From: Chiloscyllium plagiosum
Taxonomy: Eukaryota
Length of the DNA: 20,000 nt
NCBI RefSeq assembly: GCF_004010195.1
Contig: NC_057719.1
Coordinates: 7,026,964 to 7,046,963 of the forward strand
Reading direction: 5' to 3'
This document shows, piece by piece, positions 2,821 through 20,000 of the stretch (positions are counted from its first letter, which is position 1; each line of letters opens with the position of its first letter). Under the pieces are notes generated by a model that saw nothing but the letters and a program-made list of their open reading frames with translations, was not told the DNA's origin and did no database searches. The translations under genes were made by a program, and so were the position numbers.

Positions 2821-3658
2821 CTTCCATGTGTGTAAAAGATTTACCAATGAAAGATGTTTGATTTCTAACTATTCTTGAAACTATAAATCCTTTTGTCTTG
2901 ATCCAGTATGTCATAAACCTTAAATGCTTCTACAATGAACACCTGAAAGACCTAAATCTCAACTAATTAAATATGGACATTACCTTTGTTCCAGGGAACA
3001 CTCTCATCACTTTGTGTGTTAGCTTATCAATAACAGTTGTCTCTCTGTTCCACCGTGGACAAACCAAATATGATTAACGTGATCAGAATGTTCATTATCT
3101 TTCCTCCATTATCTTGGTTTCCCTTAGCCAAACTAGGCTGTTGAATCTTGATTCCAAACAATGATACAAAATGCATCACTAACAAACTATCCTTCATTTG
3201 AAAGAAGCATTTTGGAAGTCACCTGATAAGTCATTTTGTTATCTACTTTTAAACCCAGCAGAAGTCGCTTGCGAAGAGACAGAATGTCACCAAAAGCCAT
3301 CAAACAATCTACAAGTCATCTGAGCAGCAAAGGTCATAATACCTTGTGGGAGCTATTACCAGAGAGAATGAACCCCATTCCATGTTTTCCAATGTCAAAT
3401 TCACCTGAGAACTCACCTTCTGGAAATTTGTGTTAAAGAAAGTTTGCAGCTTATTGATAATCCTTTTTCTTTACAAGACTTTAACTTCTCGTTTAAAGTG
3501 TTACTTTCATCTAGTCTCAAATTTCAAAAAATAAATTGAGGAGACTGCCTCAAAAACAACCATAAAGGGGTTTATAAGTTGCAGCTATATTTTACTCATC
3601 TGAACCTAACAATTGTGTAAAATCAGTGAGATATTGCATTAAAATCTGCGTCTGGTGT

Positions 3659-3785
3659 GCCTGATGAAGAGTTTACGCCCGAAAAATCAACTTTCCTGCT
3701 CCTCAGATGCTGCCTGACCTGCTGTGCTTTTCCAGCATGACATTCTTGACTCTGATCGCCAGCATCTGCGGTCCTCACTTTCTCC
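3659..3785 (+). mobile_element. Solo Penelope-like terminal (pLTR) fragment with decayed hammerhead motif
   Basis: cctgatgaagagtttacgcccgaaa…gatgctgcctgacctgctgtgcttttccagc…tcctcactttctcc is homologous to 10717-10925 and to the PLE 3' end at 19582-19677. Confidence 0.85.
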
Positions 3786-4779
3786 CAAAAGTAAATAACC
3801 CTCATTTTTAAAGCTTTCATAAAGCTTGTTATTTAATGGGAAAGCACTCTGGGCAAGAACCGTCACACCCACAAATACTGATCAGTGGTAATAAAAAGGA
3901 ATCCAATAATGCAAGTATCCTCCTCTAGATGCTTTATTTCTGATTAAAGAAAAGTACTGAGGTAATCATTTTTGTATTAAAGGTAGTTGATACTTTTAGT
4001 AACTAATTATGAAGATAATCAGTGAAGTCTGAATACTGTGTAGTCATTGTGGACAGATAAGTTAGTAGCTTTACACAAAACAATAAAAGTGTTAACATTT
4101 TTGCTACCTTAGTTTCTTTACCAGTCACCTTGTCTGTTTCTATCTTGAAGTTTCTCAGTCAGCAACTTATTCTTAAAAAAATCACAAAGGAAATGTAAAG
4201 ATTATTGTCATCAAATACTTGCACATTTTTATTCTATTCAAGTAGTGGTCCCTGTGATGGTATTCTATGCAGTTGAAATTATTTTTATGTTGTTATGTCA
4301 GAACTGTGGTTTTAGAAGAAGTTGAATAAATTGGAACAGTAACAAATGTTCCACAGTGTAATCCATGTTATTTGTGGTACAAACTGCTCGTAGAGAGGGA
4401 GTTTGGAATTGTAATTGTGGGTGACCAATATTCCTTCAAATATTGTCCAATTAGTATTCTCAGTTCAATAAAAGTGTGTTGTTATGTAATATGTAAGAAA
4501 ATTTACAAGCCTGCCATATGCAATAAATACAAATGACAAATAAGAATGCTGTTACTGTTAGGTTGTTTGATCTGAACTAGTCAAAAGTTGTTTACTATTA
4601 TTTATACTAGAATTTATTATTTAATAAATCTAGTGAGAATCAACCCAAGGGGGAAAAGAAAACAGTACTGCAAAGCAAATTGTGCGTTCTTGATTCTGTC
4701 ATAAACATTTTCCAGCATAGTCAAAATGAAACCTGTGACCAGATTTAGAGAAAGTTATCACTTCTTTTGTTTTAAATCT

Positions 4780-5379: not shown

Positions 5380-6455
5380 TGTTTTACAATTTGAATCAAT
5401 GACTTGGTTGAGGGGAGTGAAGGCATGATAGCAAACTTTACAGACAATGCAGATAGTGAGGAAAGTGTGGTCTGAACAAGATGTAAAGGAATTGCAGACA
5501 AGTAGAGGTCGAGAAAATGGACTAAAATCTGGCAGATGATGCATGATGTGGGAAAATATGAATTTGTTCACTTTTAGTGATAATGTGAAAGAAAACTGAC
5601 TTAAATGGAAAACAATTAACAGAATTCCAAGGTGCAGAGGGGTCTAGGTGTTCTATGTGCGAAGTCACAAAGTTATTATGCAAATGAAACAAAAACAAAA
5701 ATTGGTTGAGAAATTCAGCATTCTGAAGCAGGATAGCTGGACCTGAAACATTAACTTTGCGTTAATCCACATTCTCTCCTCCAATGCTGTCAGATCTGCC
5801 GAGTTTTTCCAGCAATCTATGTTTTTGTTTTGGGTTTCCTGCATCCACATGTGTTTTAGTTTTTTTTAGTTATGTAGATAAAACAGAAATAAAGAAGGTT
5901 AGTGGGGTGCTCTGCTTTATAAGGGGAAATGAATGCAAAAGTAATGGTGTTACACTTCAGTTTTCAGGGTATTATTTCAGATCTGTTTTAGGAATTTTAT
6001 TTAAGGGAGGTTGTAAACACATTGAAGGCAGTTTAAAGTGGTTTGCAAGATTGAATCCAGGAGGAAGGTTTAACAGGCTGGCTTGTTTTCACGAAAGTTC
6101 ACAAGAGTGAGGGATGACTTAACTGAAGTGTATAAAATTCTGAGTGGTCTTGCCAAGGTAGATGTTGAAAGGATGTTTTGTGGGTCAGTCCAGAATGTTA
6201 GGCTTCTGCTTTATAATTAGAGGTTGCTCTTTCAGGATAGAGATGAGTTTTTTTTATCCTGAGGATTGACTTTGGAAATTTCAGTCTGAAAATGTTATAA
6301 GGCAGGCGGATAGGTACTTGTCAGGTAAAGGAATTGTGGGTTAGTGGGGCTCGATGGGAATGTGGAATTAGAAATACAAACAAATCAGCCACAAACTTGT
6401 TGAATGGCAGAGCAGGCTCAAGGGCTATTTTACTCTTGTTTTTATGTTTATGTGT
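5380..6455 (+). mobile_element. Old, decayed CR1 LINE (RT C-terminal half to 3' UTR)
   Basis: atcaatgacttgg…atagcaaactttacagacaatgc (INDL…KFADD-like), tggcagatg, gaagtgtataaaattctgagtgg and a 3' end gaatggcagagcaggctcaaggg, colinear with the CR1 at 7424-10077. Confidence 0.7.
5686..5869. mobile_element. Short PLE-terminus-like fold-back element inserted in the old CR1
   Basis: Inverted arms aaacaaaaacaaaaattgg…gaaattcagca and tgccgagtttttccagcaatctatgtttttgttt. Decayed hammerhead-like core ctgaagcagg…cctgaaacatt at 5723-5752. Possible TSD ttatgcaaat (5676-5685) / ttatgtagat (5870-5879). Confidence 0.6.
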
Positions 6456-7423: not shown

Positions 7424-10077
7424 ATACAAATTCTATAGGAAGGTCAGAAAGTGGGGTGAAAGAGGAGGAGTGTGGTGCTTTGGATAAGGGGTAGTATTAC
7501 TGTTGTACTTGAGGATATTCTGGGAATACATCCAGCAAAATTATTTGGGTGGAACTGAGAAATAAGAAAGGAATGATCACCTTATTGGGATTGTATTATA
7601 GACCCCCTAATAATTGAGAAACAAATTTGTAAGGAGATTTTTGTTATTTGTAAGAATAATAGGGTGATTATGGTAGGGGATTTTAACTTTCCAAGCATAG
7701 GCTGGGACTGCAACAGTATTAAGGGTTTAGATGGAAAGGAATTTCTTAAGTGTGTACAAGAAAATTTTCTGATTCAGTATGTGAATGTACCTACTGGAGA
7801 AGGTGCAAACCTTGACCTTCTCTTGGGAAGTAGGGCGGTGGGGGAGCACTTTGGGGCGAGCGACCATAATTCCATTAGATTTTAAAATAGTGATGGAAAA
7901 GGATAGACCAGGTCTAAAAGTTGAAGTTCTAAATTGGAGAAAGGCCAATTTTGACAGTATTAGGCAAGAACTTTCAAAAGCTGATTGTGTGCAGATGTTC
8001 GCAGGTAAAGGGATGGCTGGAAAATGGGAAGCCTTCAGAAATGAGAGTCCAGAGAAAGTATATTCCTGTCAGGGTGAAAGGAAAGGCTGGTAGGTACACG
8101 GAATGTTGGATGACTAAAGAAATTGAGGGTTTGGTTCAGAAAAAGAAGGAAGCATATGTAAGATATAGACAGGATAGATCGAGTGAATCCTTAGAGTATA
8201 ATGGCAGTAGGAGTATATTTAAGAGGGAAAACAGAAGAGCAAAAAGGGGACATAATTTAGCTTTGGCAAATAGGGCTAAGGAGAAACCAAAGAGATTTTG
8301 TAACTACCTTAAGTTCCAAAGGGTAACTAGGGAGAGAATAGGGACCCTTAAATCAAGGCAACTTGTGTGGAGCCTCAAGAGATGGGTAGATACTAAACTA
8401 GTATTTTGCATCAGGAGAAGGACATGGAAGATATAGAATGTGGGGAAATAGATGGTGACATCTTGAAAAATGTCCATATTACAGAGGAGGAGGTGCTGTA
8501 TGTCTTGAAACAGACAGACAGAAATGGATAAATCTCCAGGACCTGATCAGGTGTACCCTTGAATTCTGAGGGAAGTTAGGGACGTGATTGTTGGGTTCCT
8601 TGCTGAGATATTTGTATCATCGATAGTTGCAGGTAAGGTGCCGGAAGACTAGAGGTTGGCTAACATGGTACCTCTATTTTAAGAAAGGTGGTAAGGAAAA
8701 GCCAGGGAACTCCAGATCAGTGAGTCTGACGTCAGTGGTGGACAGGTTGTTTGGGTGGGGGTCCTGATGGACAGGATGTATATGTATTTGGAAAGGCGAG
8801 GACTGATTCAGGATAGTCAACATAGCTTTGTGCATGGGAAATCATGTCTCACAAACTTGATTGAGTTTTTTAAAGAAGTAACAAAGATGATTGATGAGGG
8901 CAGAGCGGTGGACGTGATCTATATGGACTTCAGTAAGGCGTTTGACAAAGTTCCTCATGGGAGACTGGTTAACCGGGTTAGATTTCATGGAATATAGGAA
9001 GAATTAGCCATTTGGATGCAGACTTGGCTTGAAGATAGAAGACAGAGGGTGGTGGTGGAGGTTATTTTTCAGATTGGAGGCCTGTGACCAGTGGAGTGCC
9101 ACAAGGATCGGTGCTGTGTCCACTGCTTTCCATCATTTATAAAATTATTTGGATGTGAACATAGGAGGTGTAGTTAGTAGGTTTGCCGATGACCCCAAAA
9201 TTGGAGTTGTAGTGGATAGCAAAGAAGGTTACCTCAGTACAATGGGAACTTGATCAGATGCACCAATGGGCTGATGGATTTTAATTCGGATAAATGTGAG
9301 GTGCTGCATTTTGGGAAAGCAAATCTTAGCAGGACCTATTCACTTAATGGTAAGGTCCTAGGGAGTGTTGCTGAACAAAGAGACCTTGGAATGCAGGGTC
9401 AAAGCTCCTTGAAAGTAGACTCGCAGGTAGATAGGATAGTGAAGGCGGTATTTGATATGCTTTTCTTTATTGGTCAGAGTATAGGAGTTGGAAGGTCATG
9501 TTGCGGTTGTACAGGACATTGGTTAGGCCACTTTTGGAATATTGCATGCAGTTCTGGTCTCTCTCCATTCAGAGAGATGTTGTGAAACTTGAAAGGGTAC
9601 AGAAAAGGTTTACAAGGATGTTGGCAGGGTTGGAGGATTTGAGCTATAGGGAGAGGCTGAACAGGCTGGGGCTGTATTCCCTGAAGCTTCAGCGGCTGAG
9701 GGGTGACCTTATAGAGGTTTATAAAATCATGAGGGTCATGGATAGGAACAATAGACAAGGTCTTTTCCCTGGGGTGGGGGAGTCTAGAACTAGAGGGCAG
9801 GGGTTTAGGGTGAGAGGGGGAAGATATAAAAGAGACCTAAGAGGCAACTTTTTCACTCAGAGGGTGTTGTGTGTATGGGATGAGCTGCCAGAAGAAGTGG
9901 TGGAGCTGATGCAATTGCAGCACTTAAAAGATATTTGGATGGGTATATGAATAGAAACTGTTTGGAGGGATATGGGCCAAGTGTTGGCAAATGGGATTAG
10001 ATTAGATATCTAATTGGCATGGACGTGTTGGACAGAAGGGCCTGGTTCCGTGATGTACATCTGTCTCTATATCTCTA
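7424..10077 (+). mobile_element. 5'-truncated, frameshifted CR1 LINE ORF2 (C-terminal APE endonuclease, RT, 3' UTR)
   Basis: ORF pieces MVGDFNFP…LDLLL…SDHN (APE), QHSFVHGKSCLTNL…YMDFSKAFDKVPH (RT), [24 protein letters not shown]…LERVQKRFTRM…RGDLIEVYKIM. Canonical 3' tail at ~10005-10077. Confidence 0.97.
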
Positions 10078-10713
10078 ACCCCTGGAGTGTACTTGAAAAT
10101 TCAAATCGGCTATTGTACTTTTTGCTTTAATGTATGCTAAGCCTGACATTAGAAATGGATAGATGGTCAAGTTTGTGTTCAGTTAGCTACTCCTATTTGA
10201 GTTGTAGGATATATTTGGTGTCGCACAGTATTTTGCTCTGCTAAGTGAATGATTTATTGTCACTTGCATTTTACAGTAAATAATACTGTAAAATACAAGG
10301 TAAAATACAATGAAATGTTTCAACAGTTGCCACAATCCAGTACCATTTTGAACAGGTAAAGAATAAAAGAAAAACTGAAAGATGGTCCTGAGCCAGTTCA
10401 TCAATGATATCGGTGCTGGCACCCTTCCTCCACCGTCTATGCCAGCACCAATGTAGCAGTTGCCACTCTTTAGGCCCCATTTTTGCGCTACTAGGCCCAT
10501 CTGGCCAATGGTGGGGCCCGTACTGAACCCACACATCCTGCAGCCAGGAGTCCCCAGCTCTGCTGCTATTTCGATGCCAGGAGTCTCAGCTCCGGGCACA
10601 TCACGCTGCTTCCTTGCCATTGCCAGGAGTCCCCACTCTGGGTCTACTGCAACTAGGAGTCCCTGGCTCCGCTGCCAGACCAAGTCACTACTGCCACTTT
10701 GCCAAGAGTCCAA

Positions 10714-10925
10714 TTTGGAGAAAGTGAGCACTGCAGATGCTGGAGATCAGAGCTGAAAAATGTGTTGCTGGAAAAGCGCAGCAGATCAGACAGCATCAAA
10801 GGAGCAGGAGAATCGATGTTTCGGGCATAAGCCCTTCTTCAGGAATCATTCCTGAAAACGTCGAGTCTCCTGCTCCTTTGTTGCTGCCTTACCTGCTGTG
10901 CTTTTCCAGCAACACACTTTTCAGC
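10714..10925. mobile_element. Palindromic head-to-head PLE-terminus mini-element with 10-bp TSD
   Basis: Arms 10752-10846 and 10848-10925 are inverted about base 10847 (ttcaggaat-c-attcctgaa). AAGAGTCCAA occurs at 10704-10713 and 10926-10935. Confidence 0.9.
10812..10846 (-). ncRNA. Minimal hammerhead ribozyme motif (one stem III substitution)
   Basis: Minus strand reads attc-CTGAAGA-A-GGGC-ttat-GCCC-GAAAC-ATC-gatt. Confidence 0.6.
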
Positions 10926-11241
10926 AAGAGTCCAACTTTGGCTGCCTTCCTCCAAGTTGTCACCTTGCGGTGCTGCCATCTTGATAAGTCCGCTGCTGCT
11001 GCCTCCGATCTCTGGAGGGGCTTTCCCTTCGCTGCCGCCAAACACTGGGAGGACAACCTGCTGCTTCCTCCACCTCCACTTCTAGACACCATGAGGATCC
11101 ACCTCCTCCATGACCTCTGACTGCTGGGAGGGGCTGAAATTCCATATGAGACTCTCTACTGCCTCGCCAATTTCACTGACTAACCCACCTCAAAAGGCTC
11201 TAAAGAAAAGAATGTAAGAAGAGTAGCAGAAATAAGAAAGT

Positions 11242-11351
11242 AAGCGGGACCAGGTGAGCCCCGGGCTCGACCCTCACGCAGCCATGTTCCTCCTCCGCAA
11301 GCGGGACCAGGTGAGCCCTGGGCTCGACCCTCATGCAACCATGCTCCTCCG
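11242..11351. repeat. Two tandem copies of a 57-nt unit, each with a GAGCCC-N-GGGCTC palindrome
   Basis: aagcgggaccaggtgagccc(c/t)gggctcgaccctca(c/t)gca(g/a)ccatg(t/c)tcctcc starts at 11242 and again at 11299. Confidence 0.95.
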
Positions 11352-12769
11352 TCGCCATCTTGAATCAGTTAAGTAAATGGTGTACCAAAGTGATTTATAT
11401 CTTCACTGTAATAACAAGGTTAAAATTATTGCTTTAATTATTGTTTCAATCTGTTGCTTATTAGCATGCAGGCAGGCATCCTGGGTGGTACAGTGTGTCA
11501 TCATTTAAATGAGCTCAGTTATGCAAAAGGGAGAATTTAATCCTTACTAATGGTATTTGTTTTCTCGTACCCACTTTCACTACATTTGATTGCATTATGA
11601 TGAGCCTTGCACTCCAGTGTTATCACCGCTTTGATTTATCATACTCCTGCGAGTATGCTGGATTAAAAGGTGTACTTAAATCAGTAAATGTTAACTTTGT
11701 ACGCTTCTCATTGGACCATTTGTATACTGTTACAGCTGATATCATGATAGAGTTCAGTGCGCATCAAAATATTGTTTCCAGTCATTACTAGAGACAGACC
11801 GTCTTTAATTATACTATTTTTCTTAAGTGCATTTTTTAAACAAGCCTATGTTTGCTCAACCTAATGACAAGTGTAGTCTTTTGTTGGAATAATGAAGCCT
11901 TGTGAACTAATAATAGTGAGGTTATTCTTGCATTGTGTCCAAGTCTCATGCCAGTGGAGTTGTCTTTTCCTAGAAAGTTGATGGTGTCCTTGTGACAAAG
12001 ACAAGTTTATGTCATTAATATTGCAAAATAAATAAGGAACAGAGGACTGCATGCAACAGAAGCCTAAATACTGCAATTCTTTCAAACATAGTTGATAACA
12101 TAAAATAATGGAATAATCCTTAAAACCTAATCCTAGACTTTATATGAATGTTCTAATTTTTGAAATAGATTTTTGCTTATCTTTGCCCATGTTATGGTTT
12201 TGGGCATTGATTTTTTTTTTCACCTTCTCAGACAAAATTTAACAGTTAGGTGTTTTGAAGTCTTGTATTTTAAAGTGAAGTGAAATCATGCAAAGTTGGT
12301 TTTTGAAAAGAAAGCTTTAGGCATTAGGCATGTGCATTGAAGCTAGAGAAGCAGTTTGCGAAATGTCACAAACAAAGCTACTTTGAATGCAAACCACAGA
12401 ATTAAATGTTGTATCCAGTGCCCGTTAAGCCAGAATGGCCCCTAACCATTTCAGGATATGGCTTCATCAGTCCCACATGACACTGCAAAGAGGAAAATGG
12501 TGGGTTTTTTTATTGACAGGTCCATCATTAAATCATTGAGTAAAGAAGCAGCTAGAGGCGATAGCTTTTGCTGGATGACTCTGAAAAGTGCCTTCTGTTA
12601 TGCAGCTGCCTCTTAAAAGCATTTTTAAAGTGAGAAAATTTGACATTGTTATAACTAGAATTTTTAGAAATGGTAAACTGTATTTGTAGTGACAGCATGG
12701 TTGCTGTAGTAGCTTTTTTTCAGTGCTGTAGACCAGTTAAATTGTCCTTGTTAGTAATAAACACCAAAA

Positions 12770-12920
12770 AAAAAAATGAGAAGCTGGAATCTGAAACAAT
12801 AAAATGCAGCAGGTCAGGCACCATTTGTGAAGCACTGTGTATATTGAGGAGTGGACCCTGATGGAGGTTCACTTCTGATATATTAACTATTCGCAACTCT
12901 GTGCTGATGAGCGTTGACCA
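12770..12920. mobile_element. Very decayed PLE-terminus-like repeat
   Basis: gaagctggaatctgaaacaa…gcagcaggtcaggcaccat matches the gcagcaggtcaggcagcat motif of the other PLE termini. Confidence 0.4.
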
Positions 12921-13293: not shown

Positions 13294-14974
13294 ACATAGA
13301 AAATAGGAACAGGAGGAGGCCATTTGGCCCATTGTACTTGGCTCTGCCATTCAGTATGGTTGATCCCCTCTCTCACACCGTACTCCCGTCCTCTCCTCAT
13401 ACCCCTTAACAACTTTAGCTTTAGACATCTCTCTCAAATATAATTAGTAACTTTTGTATCCATAGCTGCTGTGATAGAGATTTCCACAGGGCCAGTACCC
13501 TGAATGAAGAAATATTTCCTCAGGTTGTTTTTCAGACTGGAGGCCTGTGACCAGTGGAGTGCCACAAGGATCAGTGCTGGGTCCACCATCATTCGTTATT
13601 TATATAAATGATTTGGATATGAGCATAAGAGATATAGTTAGTAAGTTTACAGATGGCATCAAATTGGACAGTGAAGAAGGCTACCTCCGATTATAAAAGG
13701 ATCTTCATTAGATGGGCCAGTGGGCTGAGAAGTTGGAGTTTAATTCAGATAACTGTGAAGTGCTGCATTTTGGTAAAGCAAATCTTAGCAGGACTTGTAA
13801 ACCTTTTCTGAACCATTAAGTGTATAAGATGTTGCCAGGATTGGAGGATTTGAGTTGGGTGAGACTGAATAGGCTGGGGCTGTTTTCCCTGGAGTGTCGA
13901 AGGCTGAGGGTTCACCTTATAGAGGTTTATAAAATTGAAGGGCATAGATAGGATAAATAGACAAAGTCTTTTCCCTGAGGTCGGGGAGTCCAGAACTGGA
14001 GGGTGAGATTTAGGGTGAGAGGGGAAAGATAAAGACCTAAGGGGCAACTTTATCATGCAGATGGCGGTATGTGTATGTTCCAAACCCCAAATCAGGGGAA
14101 ACATTATCCCTCTCTAGTCCTGTTACAATTTTACATATTTAAATGAGCCCCCCGCCCCCTTCCGTGATAAACCCCAGTAAATATAGGCCCAATCAATTCA
14201 ATCTCTCCTCATTGGACAAATCAGCAACCCCAGGAATTAATGTGGTGAGCTTTCATTGCATTTCTTTTCTTGGACAAGGAGACCAAAACTGGAACACACT
14301 GCTCTAGGTGTGGTCTAACCAAGGCTTTTTATAGCTGCACTAGACCATTTAGCTCCTGTCCTCAAACTGTTGAACTAAAGTCCAACATACCATTTGTCAC
14401 CTTAACTGCTTGCTGCATCTGCATGCTTGCTTTTAATGACTTTGTGTAAGGACACCGTGGTCCCTTTATTGTCACTTTAGTAATATTCTGTCGTTCTCCC
14501 AAAGTGGTCAGCTACACATTTACCCACACCATACTGCATCTGCGATGCATTTGTCATTCAACTTTTCTAAATCACTTTTACATTCTTCTCTCCACTTAAT
14601 ATCCCACTTAGTTTTACATTGCCAGCAAAATTGGAAATGTTACAATTGATTCCATTATACAAATCATTGATATGTGTTATGTCAAACTGGGAGTCAAGTT
14701 TTCATTGCTGATAGCTACTGGTTGGAACCCAAGAATCACACTCATCCACTCTGATAAACAGCTAATAAACAGCACATATGCTTTGCTTTTGAACACTAAC
14801 CTCTTGCATGGGACTTTATCAAATACTTTCTGAAAATCCAAAGATGCACAGGTTCTCCCTCATCTATTCTACTAGTACATCAATAGAAAGTTCAGTTGTA
14901 AAACGTGATTTCCCTTTCATAGCTCCATACTGACTTTGTTTAATCCTGTTAATGTTTTCCACGTGAACAGTTAT
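13294..14974 (-). mobile_element. Old antisense CR1 LINE (second family), interrupted by a younger CR1 and ending at a PLE
   Basis: 3' end catagaaaataggaacaggaggaggccatttggccc. Antisense RT motifs gaccaaaactgg…ctaggtgtggtctaaccaagg, gccagcaaaattgg and ggactttatcaaatactttctgaaaatcc (DFQKxFDKVP). Confidence 0.8.
13522..14077 (+). mobile_element. Internally deleted and rearranged CR1 RT fragment, same family as 7424-10077
   Basis: Near-identity to 9060-9878 (ggaggcctgtgaccagtggagtgccacaaggatc…). Lacks the 3' tail and carries a deletion plus a micro-inversion. Confidence 0.92.
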
Positions 14975-15380
14975 CTGTTCGCCGAGCTGGAAGTTTTTGT
15001 TGCAAACGTTTCGTCCCCTGTCTAGGTGACATCCTCAGTGCTTGGGAGCCTCCTGTCGTCTACGTATGTGGCTACTTGGGATAGCTGGTCGTGTCGTTTC
15101 GTGGCGAGTTGGTGTTCATGTATGCGGATTGTTAGCTGTCTTCCTGTTTGTCCTATATAGTGTTTTGTGCAGACCTTGCATTGGATTTTGTACACTACAT
15201 TAGTTTTGCTCATGCTGGGTATCGGGTCCTTCGTTCTGGTGAGTTGTTGTCTGAGTGTGGCTGTTGGTTTGTGTGCTGTTATAAGTCCTAGTGGTCGCAG
15301 TAGTCTGGCTGTCAGTTCAGAGATGATCTTGATGTATGGTAGTGTGGCTAGTCCTTTGGGTTGCGGCATGTCCTCGTTCC
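14975..15380 (-). mobile_element. Penelope-like element fragment: partial GIY-YIG endonuclease joined to the terminal repeat
   Basis: ORF 15022-15483 contains TLPYIK…LLRPLG…KP…KDP…NVVYKIQCKVCTKHYIGQTGRQLTIRIHEH (GIY-YIG with CxxC, PLE-type). The domain breaks off near 15056, where it meets the terminal sequence. Confidence 0.93.
15002..15041 (-). ncRNA. Minimal type I hammerhead ribozyme, core intact
   Basis: Minus strand reads GCA-CTGAGGA-T-GTCACCT-agac-AGGGGAC-GAAAC-GTT^TGC. Stem I is GCA/TGC, stem II pairs 6 of 7, and AAACGTTT is palindromic. Confidence 0.8.
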
Positions 15381-15893
15381 AACATGCGAGGGTGTTGGTC
15401 CTAACCATGCTTTGATACAGCTTGTATAAATCCCATCTTCCCCAGAATTGGTCCCAGTGTCTATTTAAATCCATCCCTCCCACATCATCTCTCTAGTCAT
15501 ACATTCAATCAATCTGTTCTCCTATTTCTGATCTTGAGAGTTCATGGCACATAGAAATGTAGAAATCTGGAGCAGGTGTAGACCATTTGGTCTTTACGTT
15601 TGTTCTGCCATTCAGTTTGATCATGGCTAATTATCCCATTTAGTATCCAGTTCTTGTTTTCTCCCTTTAATCCTTTTGTTCCTAAAATCTACGTCTAACT
15701 CCTATTTGAAAACAATCATGTTTGACCTCAATTACTTTGTGGCAGAAAATTCTACATTTACATTCTGGGTGAAGAAATTTCTCCTCATTGCAGTCCTCAA
15801 TATTCTAAGGTATCCTTAGACAGTGAACCCTATTATTGGATTTCCCCTGCCATTGGGAAAATCCTACCTGTTTTTCTGCTGTCTAGTCCTGTT

Positions 15894-17314
15894 GAGGGAG
15901 ATACTAAATGAGTATTTTGCATAAGCATTTACTGTGGAAAAGGATATGGAAGGTATAGACAGTAGGGAAATAGATGGTGACATCTTGCATCCATATTACA
16001 GAGGAGGAAGTGCTGGATGTCTTGAAATGGGTAAAGGTGGATAAATCCCCAGGACCTAATCAGGTGTACCATGGAAATCTCTGGGAAGCTAGAGAAGTGA
16101 TTGCTTGGCTTCTTGCTGAGATATTTGTATCATCGATAGTCACAGGTGAGGTGCTGGAAGATTGCAGATTGGCTAACGTGGTGCCACTGTTTAAGAAGGG
16201 TGGTAAGGACAAGCCAGGGAACTATAGACCNNNNNNNNNNNNNNNNNNNNNNNNNNNNNNNNNNNNNNNNNNNNNNNNNNNNNNNNNNNNNNNNNNNNNN
16301 NNNNNNNNNNNNNNNNNNNNNNNNNNNNNNNNNNNNNNNNNNNNNNNNNNNNNNNNNNNNNNNNNNNNNNNNNNNNNNNNNNNNNNNNNNNNNNNNNNNN
16401 NNNNNNNNNNNNNNNNNNNNNNNNNNNNNNNNNNNNNNNNNNNNNNNNNNNNNNNNNNAGGTACAGTTAGTAAGTTTGCAGATAACACCAAAATTGGAGG
16501 TGTAGTGGACAACGAAGAGGGTTACCTTCCATTACAACAGGATCTTGACCAGATGGGCCAATGGGCTGAGAAGTGGCAGATGGAGTTTAATTCCAATAAA
16601 GGCAAGGTGGCGCATTTTGGGAAAGCAAATCTTAGCAGGATTTACACACTTAATGGTAAGGTCCAAGGGAGTGTTGCTGAACAAAGAGACCTTGGAGTGC
16701 AGGTTCATAGCTCCTTGAAAGCGGAGTTGCAGGTAGATAGGATATTGGTCAGAGTGTTGAGTAGAGGAGTCGGGAGGTCATGTTGCGGATGTATAGGACA
16801 TTGGTACGACCACTGTTGGAATATTGCGTGCAATTCTGGTCCCTTTCCTATCGGAAAGATGTTATGAAATTTGACAGGGCTCAGAAAAGAGTTATAAGGA
16901 TGTTGCCAGGGTTGGAGGATTTGAACTATAGGGAGAGGCTGAACAGGCTGGGGTTGTTTTCCCTGGAGCGTCTGAGGCTGAGGGGTGAGCTTATAGAGGT
17001 TTACAAAATTATGAGGGGCATGGATAGGATAAATAGACACAGTATTTTCCCTGGGGTCGGGAAGTTCAGAACTAGAGGGCATAAGTTTAGGGTGAGATGG
17101 GAAAGATATAAAAGAGACCTATAGGGCAACGTTTTCACACAGTGTGGTACATGTATGGAATGAGCTGCCAGAGGAAATGGTGGAGGCTGGTACAATTGCA
17201 ATATTTGAGACATTTGGATAGGTATATGAATAGGAAGGGTTTGGAGGGATATGGGCCGGCTGCTAGCAGGTGGGACGAGATTGGGTTGGGATATCTGGTC
17301 GGCATGGACTCTAT
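15894..17314 (+). mobile_element. 5'-truncated CR1 LINE ORF2 (RT) with assembly gap
   Basis: KSPGP…ANVVPLFKKGGKDKPGNYR, SKFADNTKIGG, WAEKWQMEFN, YRTLVRPLLEYCVQFWS. Shortened tail ggcatggactcta. Candidate TSD TGTT at 15890-15893 and 17315-17318. Confidence 0.96.
16231..16458. other. Assembly gap (228 N)
   Basis: Run of N inside the CR1 copy. Confidence 1.
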
Positions 17315-19039: not shown

Positions 19040-19581
19040 GAAGGGAGTTGTTGGGATAATGGATAAATTTTCAGAATGACAACTTGCAACTCGTGGTGTG
19101 CTACAGGGATCAGTGTTGGGGCCACAATTAACTACAATGACTTAGGTTTATAGACAGGTTAAGCAGGTCGGCAAAAACTTGGCAGATAGCATTGCTTTTC
19201 CCCAAATTATATACTGTGCACTTTGGCAGGATAAATGGAGGAGCTGAATATTATTGAAATGGAGAAAGACTGCAAAAAGGTACAGAATAAAGGGGTTCGG
19301 GAGTCCTTGAGGCATAAATCTAAAAACGCTAGCATTCAAATTCAGGGGTTAAAGGGAAAGCAAATGCAATTTTGGCCTATATAGTAGGTTCTTCTACAAC
19401 TCTATGTCCTGCATTAAAGAAAAGTCTAGCTTTAGAAACGTTTAAAGTATTGGCCAACACGTTTCAAACGTTTGCACTTTAGAAACAGCGACCCCAATTT
19501 GTTAATTACATGACAAATTGCAAGAAACACACGTTTTAACAAAATGATCTGTATTTCAAAGGAATGGAGTATAAAAATTGG
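19040..19581 (+). mobile_element. Old, deleted CR1 RT fragment
   Basis: ggtgtgctacagggatcagtgttggggcc (GVxQGSVLGP), tggcagat, aaagcaaatgcaattttggcc, resuming as atttcaaaggaatggagtataaaa after an insert. Confidence 0.7.
19382..19551. mobile_element. Probable short TA-flanked MITE inside the CR1 fragment
   Basis: Interrupts the CR1 at a TA. Weakly inverted ends ta-tagtaggttcttctacaac and gttttaacaaaatgatctg-ta. Confidence 0.4.
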
Positions 19582-20000
19582 GAGCTGAAAATGTGTTGCT
19601 GGAAAAGCGCAGCAGGTCAGGCAGCATCCAGGGAACAGGAGAATCGGCGTTTCGGGCATAAGCCCTTCTTCAGGAATGAGGAAAGTGTGTCCAGCAGGCT
19701 AAGATAAAAGGTAGGGAGGAGGGACTTGGGGGAGGGGCGTCGGAAATGCGATAGGTGGAAAGAGGTCAAGGTGAGGGTGATAGGTCAGACTGGGGTGGGG
19801 GCAGAGAGGTCAGGAAGAAGATTGCAGGTTAGGAAGGCAGTGCTGGGTTTGATGTATTTGACTGGGTGGAGGGGAAATGAGTAAACTGTTGAAATCTGAG
19901 TTCATCCCTTGTGGTTGGAGGGTTCCTAGGCAGAAGATGAGGCGCTCTTCCTCCAACCGTCGTGTTGTTGTGGTCTGGCGATGGAGGAGTCCAAAGACCT
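19582..20000 (-). mobile_element. Penelope-like element 3' end: GIY-YIG C-terminus, 3' UTR and pLTR; runs off the window
   Basis: Minus-strand translation from 19998 gives VFGLLHRQTTTTRRLEEERLIFCLGTLQPQGMNSDF, the PLE endonuclease C-terminal E..I..L.T..P.G.N motif. The terminus matches 3659-3785 and 10752-10846. Confidence 0.9.
19642..19677 (-). ncRNA. Minimal hammerhead motif with mutated cleavage triplet
   Basis: Minus strand reads attc-CTGAAGA-A-GGGC-ttat-GCCC-GAAAC-GCC-gatt. The expected GUC triplet is GCC. Confidence 0.6.

Follow-up and report, generated by a model that had tools for sequence, protein, structure and literature searches.

The question raised by this locus is whether a stretch of 40 nucleotides on the minus strand of the window (the whole 20,000-nucleotide stretch of DNA analysed here) is a ribozyme that could act where it lies, or one that was merely carried along in the dead copy of a mobile element. 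The initial annotation had described it as an apparently intact minimal hammerhead at the terminus of a Penelope-like element (PLE). When re-read from the window, the sequence given for the minus strand from 15041 to 15002 is correct to the letter, each of the conserved core nucleotides claimed (C3-U-G-A-N-G-A9, G12-A-A-A15.1, U16.1 and H17) is found, and the proposed geometry of a 3-bp stem I and a stem II of seven positions with one mismatch holds on the positions (Table 1). The G10.1-C11.1 pair is present (G15030 with C15013), as are the palindromic 15.2/16.2 nucleotides (C15008/G15007), which follow one another with no loop III. The core pattern matches a single time in the window, where chance would give 0.01 matches (1 of 200 shuffles), and a looser pattern of the core alone is found in 13 of 2000 shuffles. 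In the covariance-model search that had been suggested, with a model trained on 22 relatives and the window sequence left out, 15002-15041 comes top of 12 window matches with 31.3 bits and an E-value of 1.4e-7, which is as rough as the calibration behind it. Rfam hammerhead families give no match at E up to 10, either in a scan of the window or in one of 14950-15100, and the family-type motif pattern has no match in viral contigs. The 40-mer folds as a monomer no better than shuffles (z 0.06), which is expected because stem III has no loop. Judged by its sequence, the motif is a real minimal type I hammerhead of Penelope-like elements.

Table 1. Positions and strands of the Penelope-like copy, its coding remnants and the parts of its hammerhead motif.
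Feature	Position	Strand	Details	Basis
Penelope-like copy	14974..15380	-	5'-truncated, internally deleted, 407 bp	loose read ends, depth steps, tblastn of PLE proteins
ORF C-terminal remnant	15022..15380	-	N-terminal half of GIY-YIG endonuclease	homologues and Pfam
Deletion junction	15054..15056	.	in-frame loss of ~228 bp, 3-bp microhomology	
AC-rich 3' tail, insertion end	14974..15001	-		loose-end consensus, median lengths at 14974
First 19 codons of element ORF	14976..15032	-		match to full-length PLE ORF N-termini
Minimal type I hammerhead motif	15002..15041	-	GUU triplet, loop-less stem III	pattern and covariance model
Stem I	15041-15039 with 15004-15002	-	3 bp	
Core C3-A9	15038-15032	-		
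Extra U between A9 and 10.1	15031	-		
Stem II	15030-15024 with 15019-15013	-	6 pairs and an A.G mismatch at 15027/15016	
Loop II	15023-15020	-	4 nt	
Core G12-A14	15012-15010	-		
A15.1-U16.1	15009-15006	-	A15.1-C-G-U16.1 without loop	
N17	15005	-	U; predicted cut 15005^15004	

The limits of the insertion are set by loose ends and depth steps that recur at 14974 and 15380 in all four of the sequencing runs mapped to 14800-15700, and they enclose a portion of the region from thumb to endonuclease together with the ribozyme and a short tail. Homologues of the family have a single ORF in which an RT is followed by a C-terminal GIY-YIG endonuclease; the window copy begins within this ORF and therefore has no RT, and it has also lost half of the endonuclease. 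The nearest proteins among 14 matches, several of which carry an RT domain, belong to Chiloscyllium punctatum and Hemiscyllium ocellatum, with identities of 88-95%, and the Pfam GIY-YIG match in the remnant ORF lies below the cut-off (E 0.021). Relative to the homologues P0002 and P0059 the internal deletion amounts to 76 codons and removes the second half of the endonuclease, and family reads diverge from the window sequence at 15054-15056 from either side with a 3-bp overlap. The 3' end of the insertion falls about 12 nt short of the apparent end of many other genomic copies, and its AC-rich stretch would by analogy be the PLE tail (PMC11167929; PMC8557442). In the linker that joins RT to endonuclease no cysteines are seen over the ~60 residues leading up to the GIY-YIG motif (by eye, alignment A1), and a zinc-finger-like motif in this linker is described as a feature of Neptune and Nematis (PMC8557442). 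The family likely belongs to the Penelope/Poseidon clade. The placement at a Penelope terminus is borne out, as the motif sits at the 3' end of a PLE copy and in sense to its ORF. The accompanying phrase "transcribed antisense" is misleading, for the motif is antisense only to the plus strand of the window, and its strand is the sense strand of the element ORF. No second copy of the element or of its motif exists elsewhere in the window, and no tandem array is present at the locus. A further trace of the family is seen in a protein of C. punctatum (P0005, MAP3K7 isoform X3), whose C-terminal ~160 residues correspond to the endonuclease region of the same PLE family and represent either an exonised element or a gene-model artefact.

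The window holds two further hammerhead motifs, both of a second PLE family and both more than 4 kb from 15002-15041, one on each side. A 3' end of this second family, which we take to be Neptune-like, occupies 19560-20000 on the minus strand and consists of an endonuclease-like C-terminus, a pyrimidine-rich spacer and a minimal hammerhead at 19643-19676 in which U16.1 is changed (22 bits with model R1). The other motif, at 10812-10845 on the minus strand, has G16.2 replaced by A (28 bits), and lies within 10714-10925, where the same family forms an inverted terminal-repeat pair with 70-nt arms 34 nt apart, a layout typical of PLE ends. Decayed fragments related to the terminal repeat of the second family, with broken hammerhead cores, occur at 3658-3790, 5720-5830 and ~12807-12870. 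The remaining repeats include several LINE copies, decayed but still matching endonuclease and RT (7577-10003, 13522-14078 and 15974-17282), presumably of the CR1/L2 type, and a GC-rich 57-nt tandem duplication at 11242-11355 (1.9 copies, 92%) which adjoins the GC-rich 10500-11500. An assembly gap lies at 16231-16458.

Relatives of the element were chosen by protein alone as the best 80 of 470 confirmed loci, at 26-40% protein identity, and the 63 of these in which 150 nt or more lie downstream of the protein match were scanned for the core without any demand for pairing. The scan yields 24 matches on the sense strand and none on the antisense strand, where a shuffled set yields 0.24. Stem II has at least 3 bp in all 24 motifs (shuffle rate 0.07), stem I has at least 2 bp in 22 (0.17), and a palindromic Watson-Crick pair at 15.2/16.2, which may be CG, GC or UA, is found in 19 (0.21). 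In an alignment of 22 of the 24, with two duplicates dropped, a hand-assigned structure and 21 distinct rows for the covariation analysis, 91% of cells pair against 20-40% in slid controls. Ten of the 11 pairs change on both sides, all three stems covary, and the covariation score is reached by none of 500 shuffles. Kinship inflates this covariation, as the 25 motifs, including that of the window, collapse to 15 families, and after collapsing the innermost pairs hold in 11-15 of the 15. The covariation that had been proposed as a check is thus present at the level of the superfamily, where core and stems are conserved among distant relatives, and it is among these that the alignments show the motif to be under structural selection. 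Within the shark family, among 40 of the 201 variant rows, N17 is the only position of the motif that differs. Longer palindromic inserts in stem III are found in five of the relatives (L029, at 59 minus and 2628 plus, L038, L052, L054 and L066), some of them with a U3/A8 variant of the core, and L029 carries the same motif within inverted terminal repeats.

The position at which the family does vary is the one after which cleavage is predicted. Among RNA reads C is the letter at N17 in 102 of 194 and in 11 of 23 (113 of 217 overall), it makes up about 24% of the contig depth of three runs, and the relatives have C in 18, U in five and A in one of the 24 motifs. U17 was considered as a decay mutation of the window copy and rejected, being common in both reads and relatives; judged by these counts it is a natural variant, and its commonness argues that it is tolerated. 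NUU sites are slower to cut than NUC sites. U17 also makes an 8-nt palindrome of the window copy, which the initial annotation had taken to harbour stem III. This stands for the central ACGU, which builds stem III in a dimer, and fails for the outer pairs, which would trap nucleotides of the core. In co-folding with a two-strand nearest-neighbour model that ignores the tertiary contacts of the core, the U17 sequence is predicted to form an extended 8-bp duplex, in which A13, A14, U17 and U1.1 are paired, at -19.1 kcal/mol against -12.7 kcal/mol for the double hammerhead, a difference of 6.4 kcal/mol. For C17 the extended palindrome is predicted at -11.7 against -12.7 kcal/mol for the double hammerhead, and C17 has other misfolds. 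As a prediction only, U17 would favour an inactive misfolded duplex.

Transcription can be followed in about 2% of run X21 from organism A, a single-cell poly(A) run in which cleavage ends show up poorly. Split by first-mate strand, the reads at the motif have mean depths of 194 and 23, in favour of minus-strand RNA under the convention of most stranded libraries, and this supports transcription of the family on the ribozyme strand. Most reads cross the cut site (depth 217 at 15005 and 192 at 14991), and the read ends at 15004/15005 that cleavage had been expected to leave do not appear as a pile-up of starts or ends in this sample, itself a weak test. None of these reads can be traced to the window copy: its private allele at 15062 is carried by 0 of 32 X21 reads and that at 15066 by 0 of 34, all of which have the family letter, and the depth in the flanks on both sides of the copy is zero. 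The window copy thus shows no sign of transcription in the X21 sample, and other tissues could transcribe the site.

A contig of organism B, a related species, joins 14975 to 15385 at a depth of 47 and so represents an empty site. Differences in its left flank number 5 in ~176 letters, and its incompletely read joint hints at some letters in common at the 3' junction and at four additional ones at the 5' junction. On this one contig, the insertion would either postdate the split from the related species or be polymorphic. Both outer junctions are without differences in contigs of organism A, a run that is possibly the assembly's own source; inspection of these junctions by eye reveals no target-site duplication, and the flank gives only a weak LINE-like match at 14794-14841. 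Eight positions in the ORF differ from more than 80% of the RNA reads and a ninth from 68% (among 40 of the 201 variant rows). At nine changes per 325 nt of ORF the probability that none falls within 40 nt is 0.33, so that an intact motif needs no selection on the window copy, and such selection was rejected as the cause of its intactness; the copy is intact because it is young. The A.G mismatch of stem II was likewise considered as private to the window copy and rejected, as it is absent from the best-supported differences among the same variant rows.

The 40 nucleotides also carry coding information. The ATG at 15032-15030, which coincides with A9-U-G10.1, opens 19 codons, and the predicted cut falls 28 nt after its A, within codon 10. 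No full-length shark ORF is found among 40 long homologues, so relatives from outside the sharks served to test the start codon. The 19 codons agree at 10 of 19 residues with P0019 of Dicrocoelium dendriticum (offset 0 of 824 aa) and at 11 of 19 with P0020 (offset 1 of 832 aa), both of which are 48-50% identical to P0002. These scores are reached by 0 of 2000 shuffles and the other two frames score at most 15, whereas the other 38 of the 40 long homologues have no match to the 19 codons. Going by the N-terminal matches, the ATG at 15032 is the start codon of the element, and, since this AUG begins at A9, cleavage would detach it from the remainder of the ORF. The frame of the C-terminal remnant runs into a TAG (15024-15022) where stem II passes into loop II, a place at which P0001, P0002 and P0059 also end and which P0003, P0010 and P0012 read through. 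In the start frame C17 and U17 both encode Leu. The overlap with the AUG seems to reach a fluke element, the N-terminal residues of which, under any choice of codons, dictate at least 4 of the 6 pairs of stem II (as do 4 of 400 random peptides), and another relative starts with Met-Met as an in-frame reading of the core would give. In rotifer elements the ORF is described as starting inside the terminal repeat (PMC3846280).

It is conceivable that in the shark family this stretch unites ribozyme, start and stop in one switch. The ORF of one unit would end in loop II, 11 nt past the AUG of the next unit at A9 and in another frame, so that a tandem unit would have no untranslated region. A ribosome translating tandem or circular RNA could terminate and re-initiate within the ribozyme and thereby hold it unfolded, until binding of the element protein would lead to the AUG being cut off and switch the RNA from a messenger to a non-translated template; C17 and U17 could tune this switch without a change of amino acid. 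We consider the scheme doubtful. A stop within 11 nt of C3 is present in 4 of 24 metagenome loci, many of them decayed, and P0003, P0010 and P0012 are without a stop at that position, both of which speak against the scheme, as does an N-terminus common to only 2 of the 40 long homologues. The literature search, in the parts of papers that it reached, returned no paper on shark PLE hammerheads and none on a stop codon inside a ribozyme, which does not establish their absence from print.

Taken together, the locus is very probably a hammerhead of a Penelope/Poseidon-type terminal repeat which was copied passively within a short dead insertion and is inert in the window. In the RNA of the family, by analogy with published elements, two motifs in a tandem transcript could base-pair by way of their ACGU and cleave slowly after N17, probably with help from the element's own protein. 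The window copy would have arisen by reverse transcription from an RNA left uncut at its 3' ribozyme, given that the copy extends 31 nt beyond the cut site; the 5' truncation and the loss of 76 codons are seen in the copy itself. It is quite improbable that this copy cleaves in vivo, which would involve read-through on the minus strand, pairing in trans with family RNA or protein, and cutting of a host transcript at 15005^15004. Its core and stems do match the family majority at every compared position except the polymorphic N17, RNA of the family is there, most of it of the ribozyme strand, GUU is listed among the active triplets (PMC3138052) and the Anolis motif, which required the element's protein, cleaved once this was added (PMC11167929). 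However, no X21 read carries the private alleles, the flanks have no depth, and the two other motifs in the window belong to another family and have a broken stem III position each; in a monomer with 7-9 nt of flank the pair probabilities of stems I and II fall to ~0.2-0.35, and the single motifs reported in the literature showed no cleavage and dimers only little (PMC4209133). The earlier suggestion that the copy could self-cleave when paired with a second one is therefore unsupported as regards cleavage in the cell, and with no partner nearby, no reads of its own and a misfold-prone U17 the window copy is most likely inert.

The motif could instead be kept for reasons other than cutting, as overlapping code for the start of the ORF or as a folded signal for binding or priming by the element protein. 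The core does read as protein at the N-terminus of the ORF, where the codons for K-R-L correspond to the GAAA-CG-U core, and the roughly 2% sample of X21 shows no pile-up of read ends. Catalytic mutants of the Anolis element are reported to insert normally in vitro with no reads ending at the cut site (PMC11167929), and Naiad elements thrive without hammerheads (PMC8557442). Yet the core is also invariant where the ORF frame opens only downstream (L001) and where the frame of the AUG differs (L007, L074 and L079), so that its coding role is not a sufficient explanation; covariation is seen in all three stems, and the Anolis motif does cleave, its activity being abolished by C3G or G8C and partly rescued in the double mutant (PMC11167929), which together make a purely non-catalytic role unlikely. 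The chance that the motif is a mere look-alike or an artefact of assembly is vanishingly small. The lack of an Rfam match and the poor folding of the 40-mer would fit this, but the rates expected by chance are low on both the pattern and the roughly calibrated model, position and strand match those of the relatives, and reads and contigs of four runs cover the motif, and this explanation is refuted by the read coverage, the motifs of the relatives, their covariation and the covariance-model score.

Minimal type I hammerheads (min-HHR) are carried by metazoan Penelope-like elements, and the genomes of fishes and amphibians contain thousands of motifs of this type (Cervera and De la Pena 2014, PMC4209133); Lunse et al. 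have described cleavage of PLE hammerheads as dimers (as cited in PMC6765202). As they are described there (PMC4209133), these ribozymes share with the motif in the window a full core, an extra nucleotide between 9 and 10.1, the G10.1-C11.1 pair, a long stem II and a short stem I, the palindromic 15.2/16.2 without loop III, the location in a terminal repeat and the occurrence mostly as single motifs in truncated copies. In its sequence the window motif thus has every feature listed for PLE minimal hammerheads, with a stem I of 3 bp as compared with 4-5 in Schistosoma and 2 in D. virilis, and no shark example was found in the searched portions of that paper and its supplements. A single locus matters little when such motifs are common and the window itself holds two more from another family. 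Non-LTR retrozymes, which have a type I hammerhead of PLE origin and are reported from one cartilaginous fish, consist of non-coding units in tandem, each with its own ribozyme (bioRxiv 10.64898/2026.07.22.740005), in contrast to the single, coding-derived fragment in the window; with no tandem array, no second copy and a coding origin, this identity was rejected. The closest parallel is the Poseidon element PAc of Anolis carolinensis (Frangieh et al. 2024, PMC11167929), in which the ORF likewise starts at the beginning of stem II, the cut lies 26 nt after the start codon as compared with 28 nt here, insertions end in a downstream AC-rich tail and no RNA ends are found at the cut site. The PAc ribozyme cleaves with its protein, whereas the window motif is known from sequence and read data, and initiation on PAc is placed at 111-118, whereas the tail here ends ~58 nt past the start codon. 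The stop of a preceding ORF inside the ribozyme, present here, goes unmentioned for PAc in the portions of that paper available (PMC11167929). The role of PLE hammerheads is described as still open (PMC8557442; PMC11167929), and the shark family, which combines an overlap of stop, start and cut with a natural synonymous C17/U17 variant, offers a compact test case, that overlap being the one lead at this locus worth testing.
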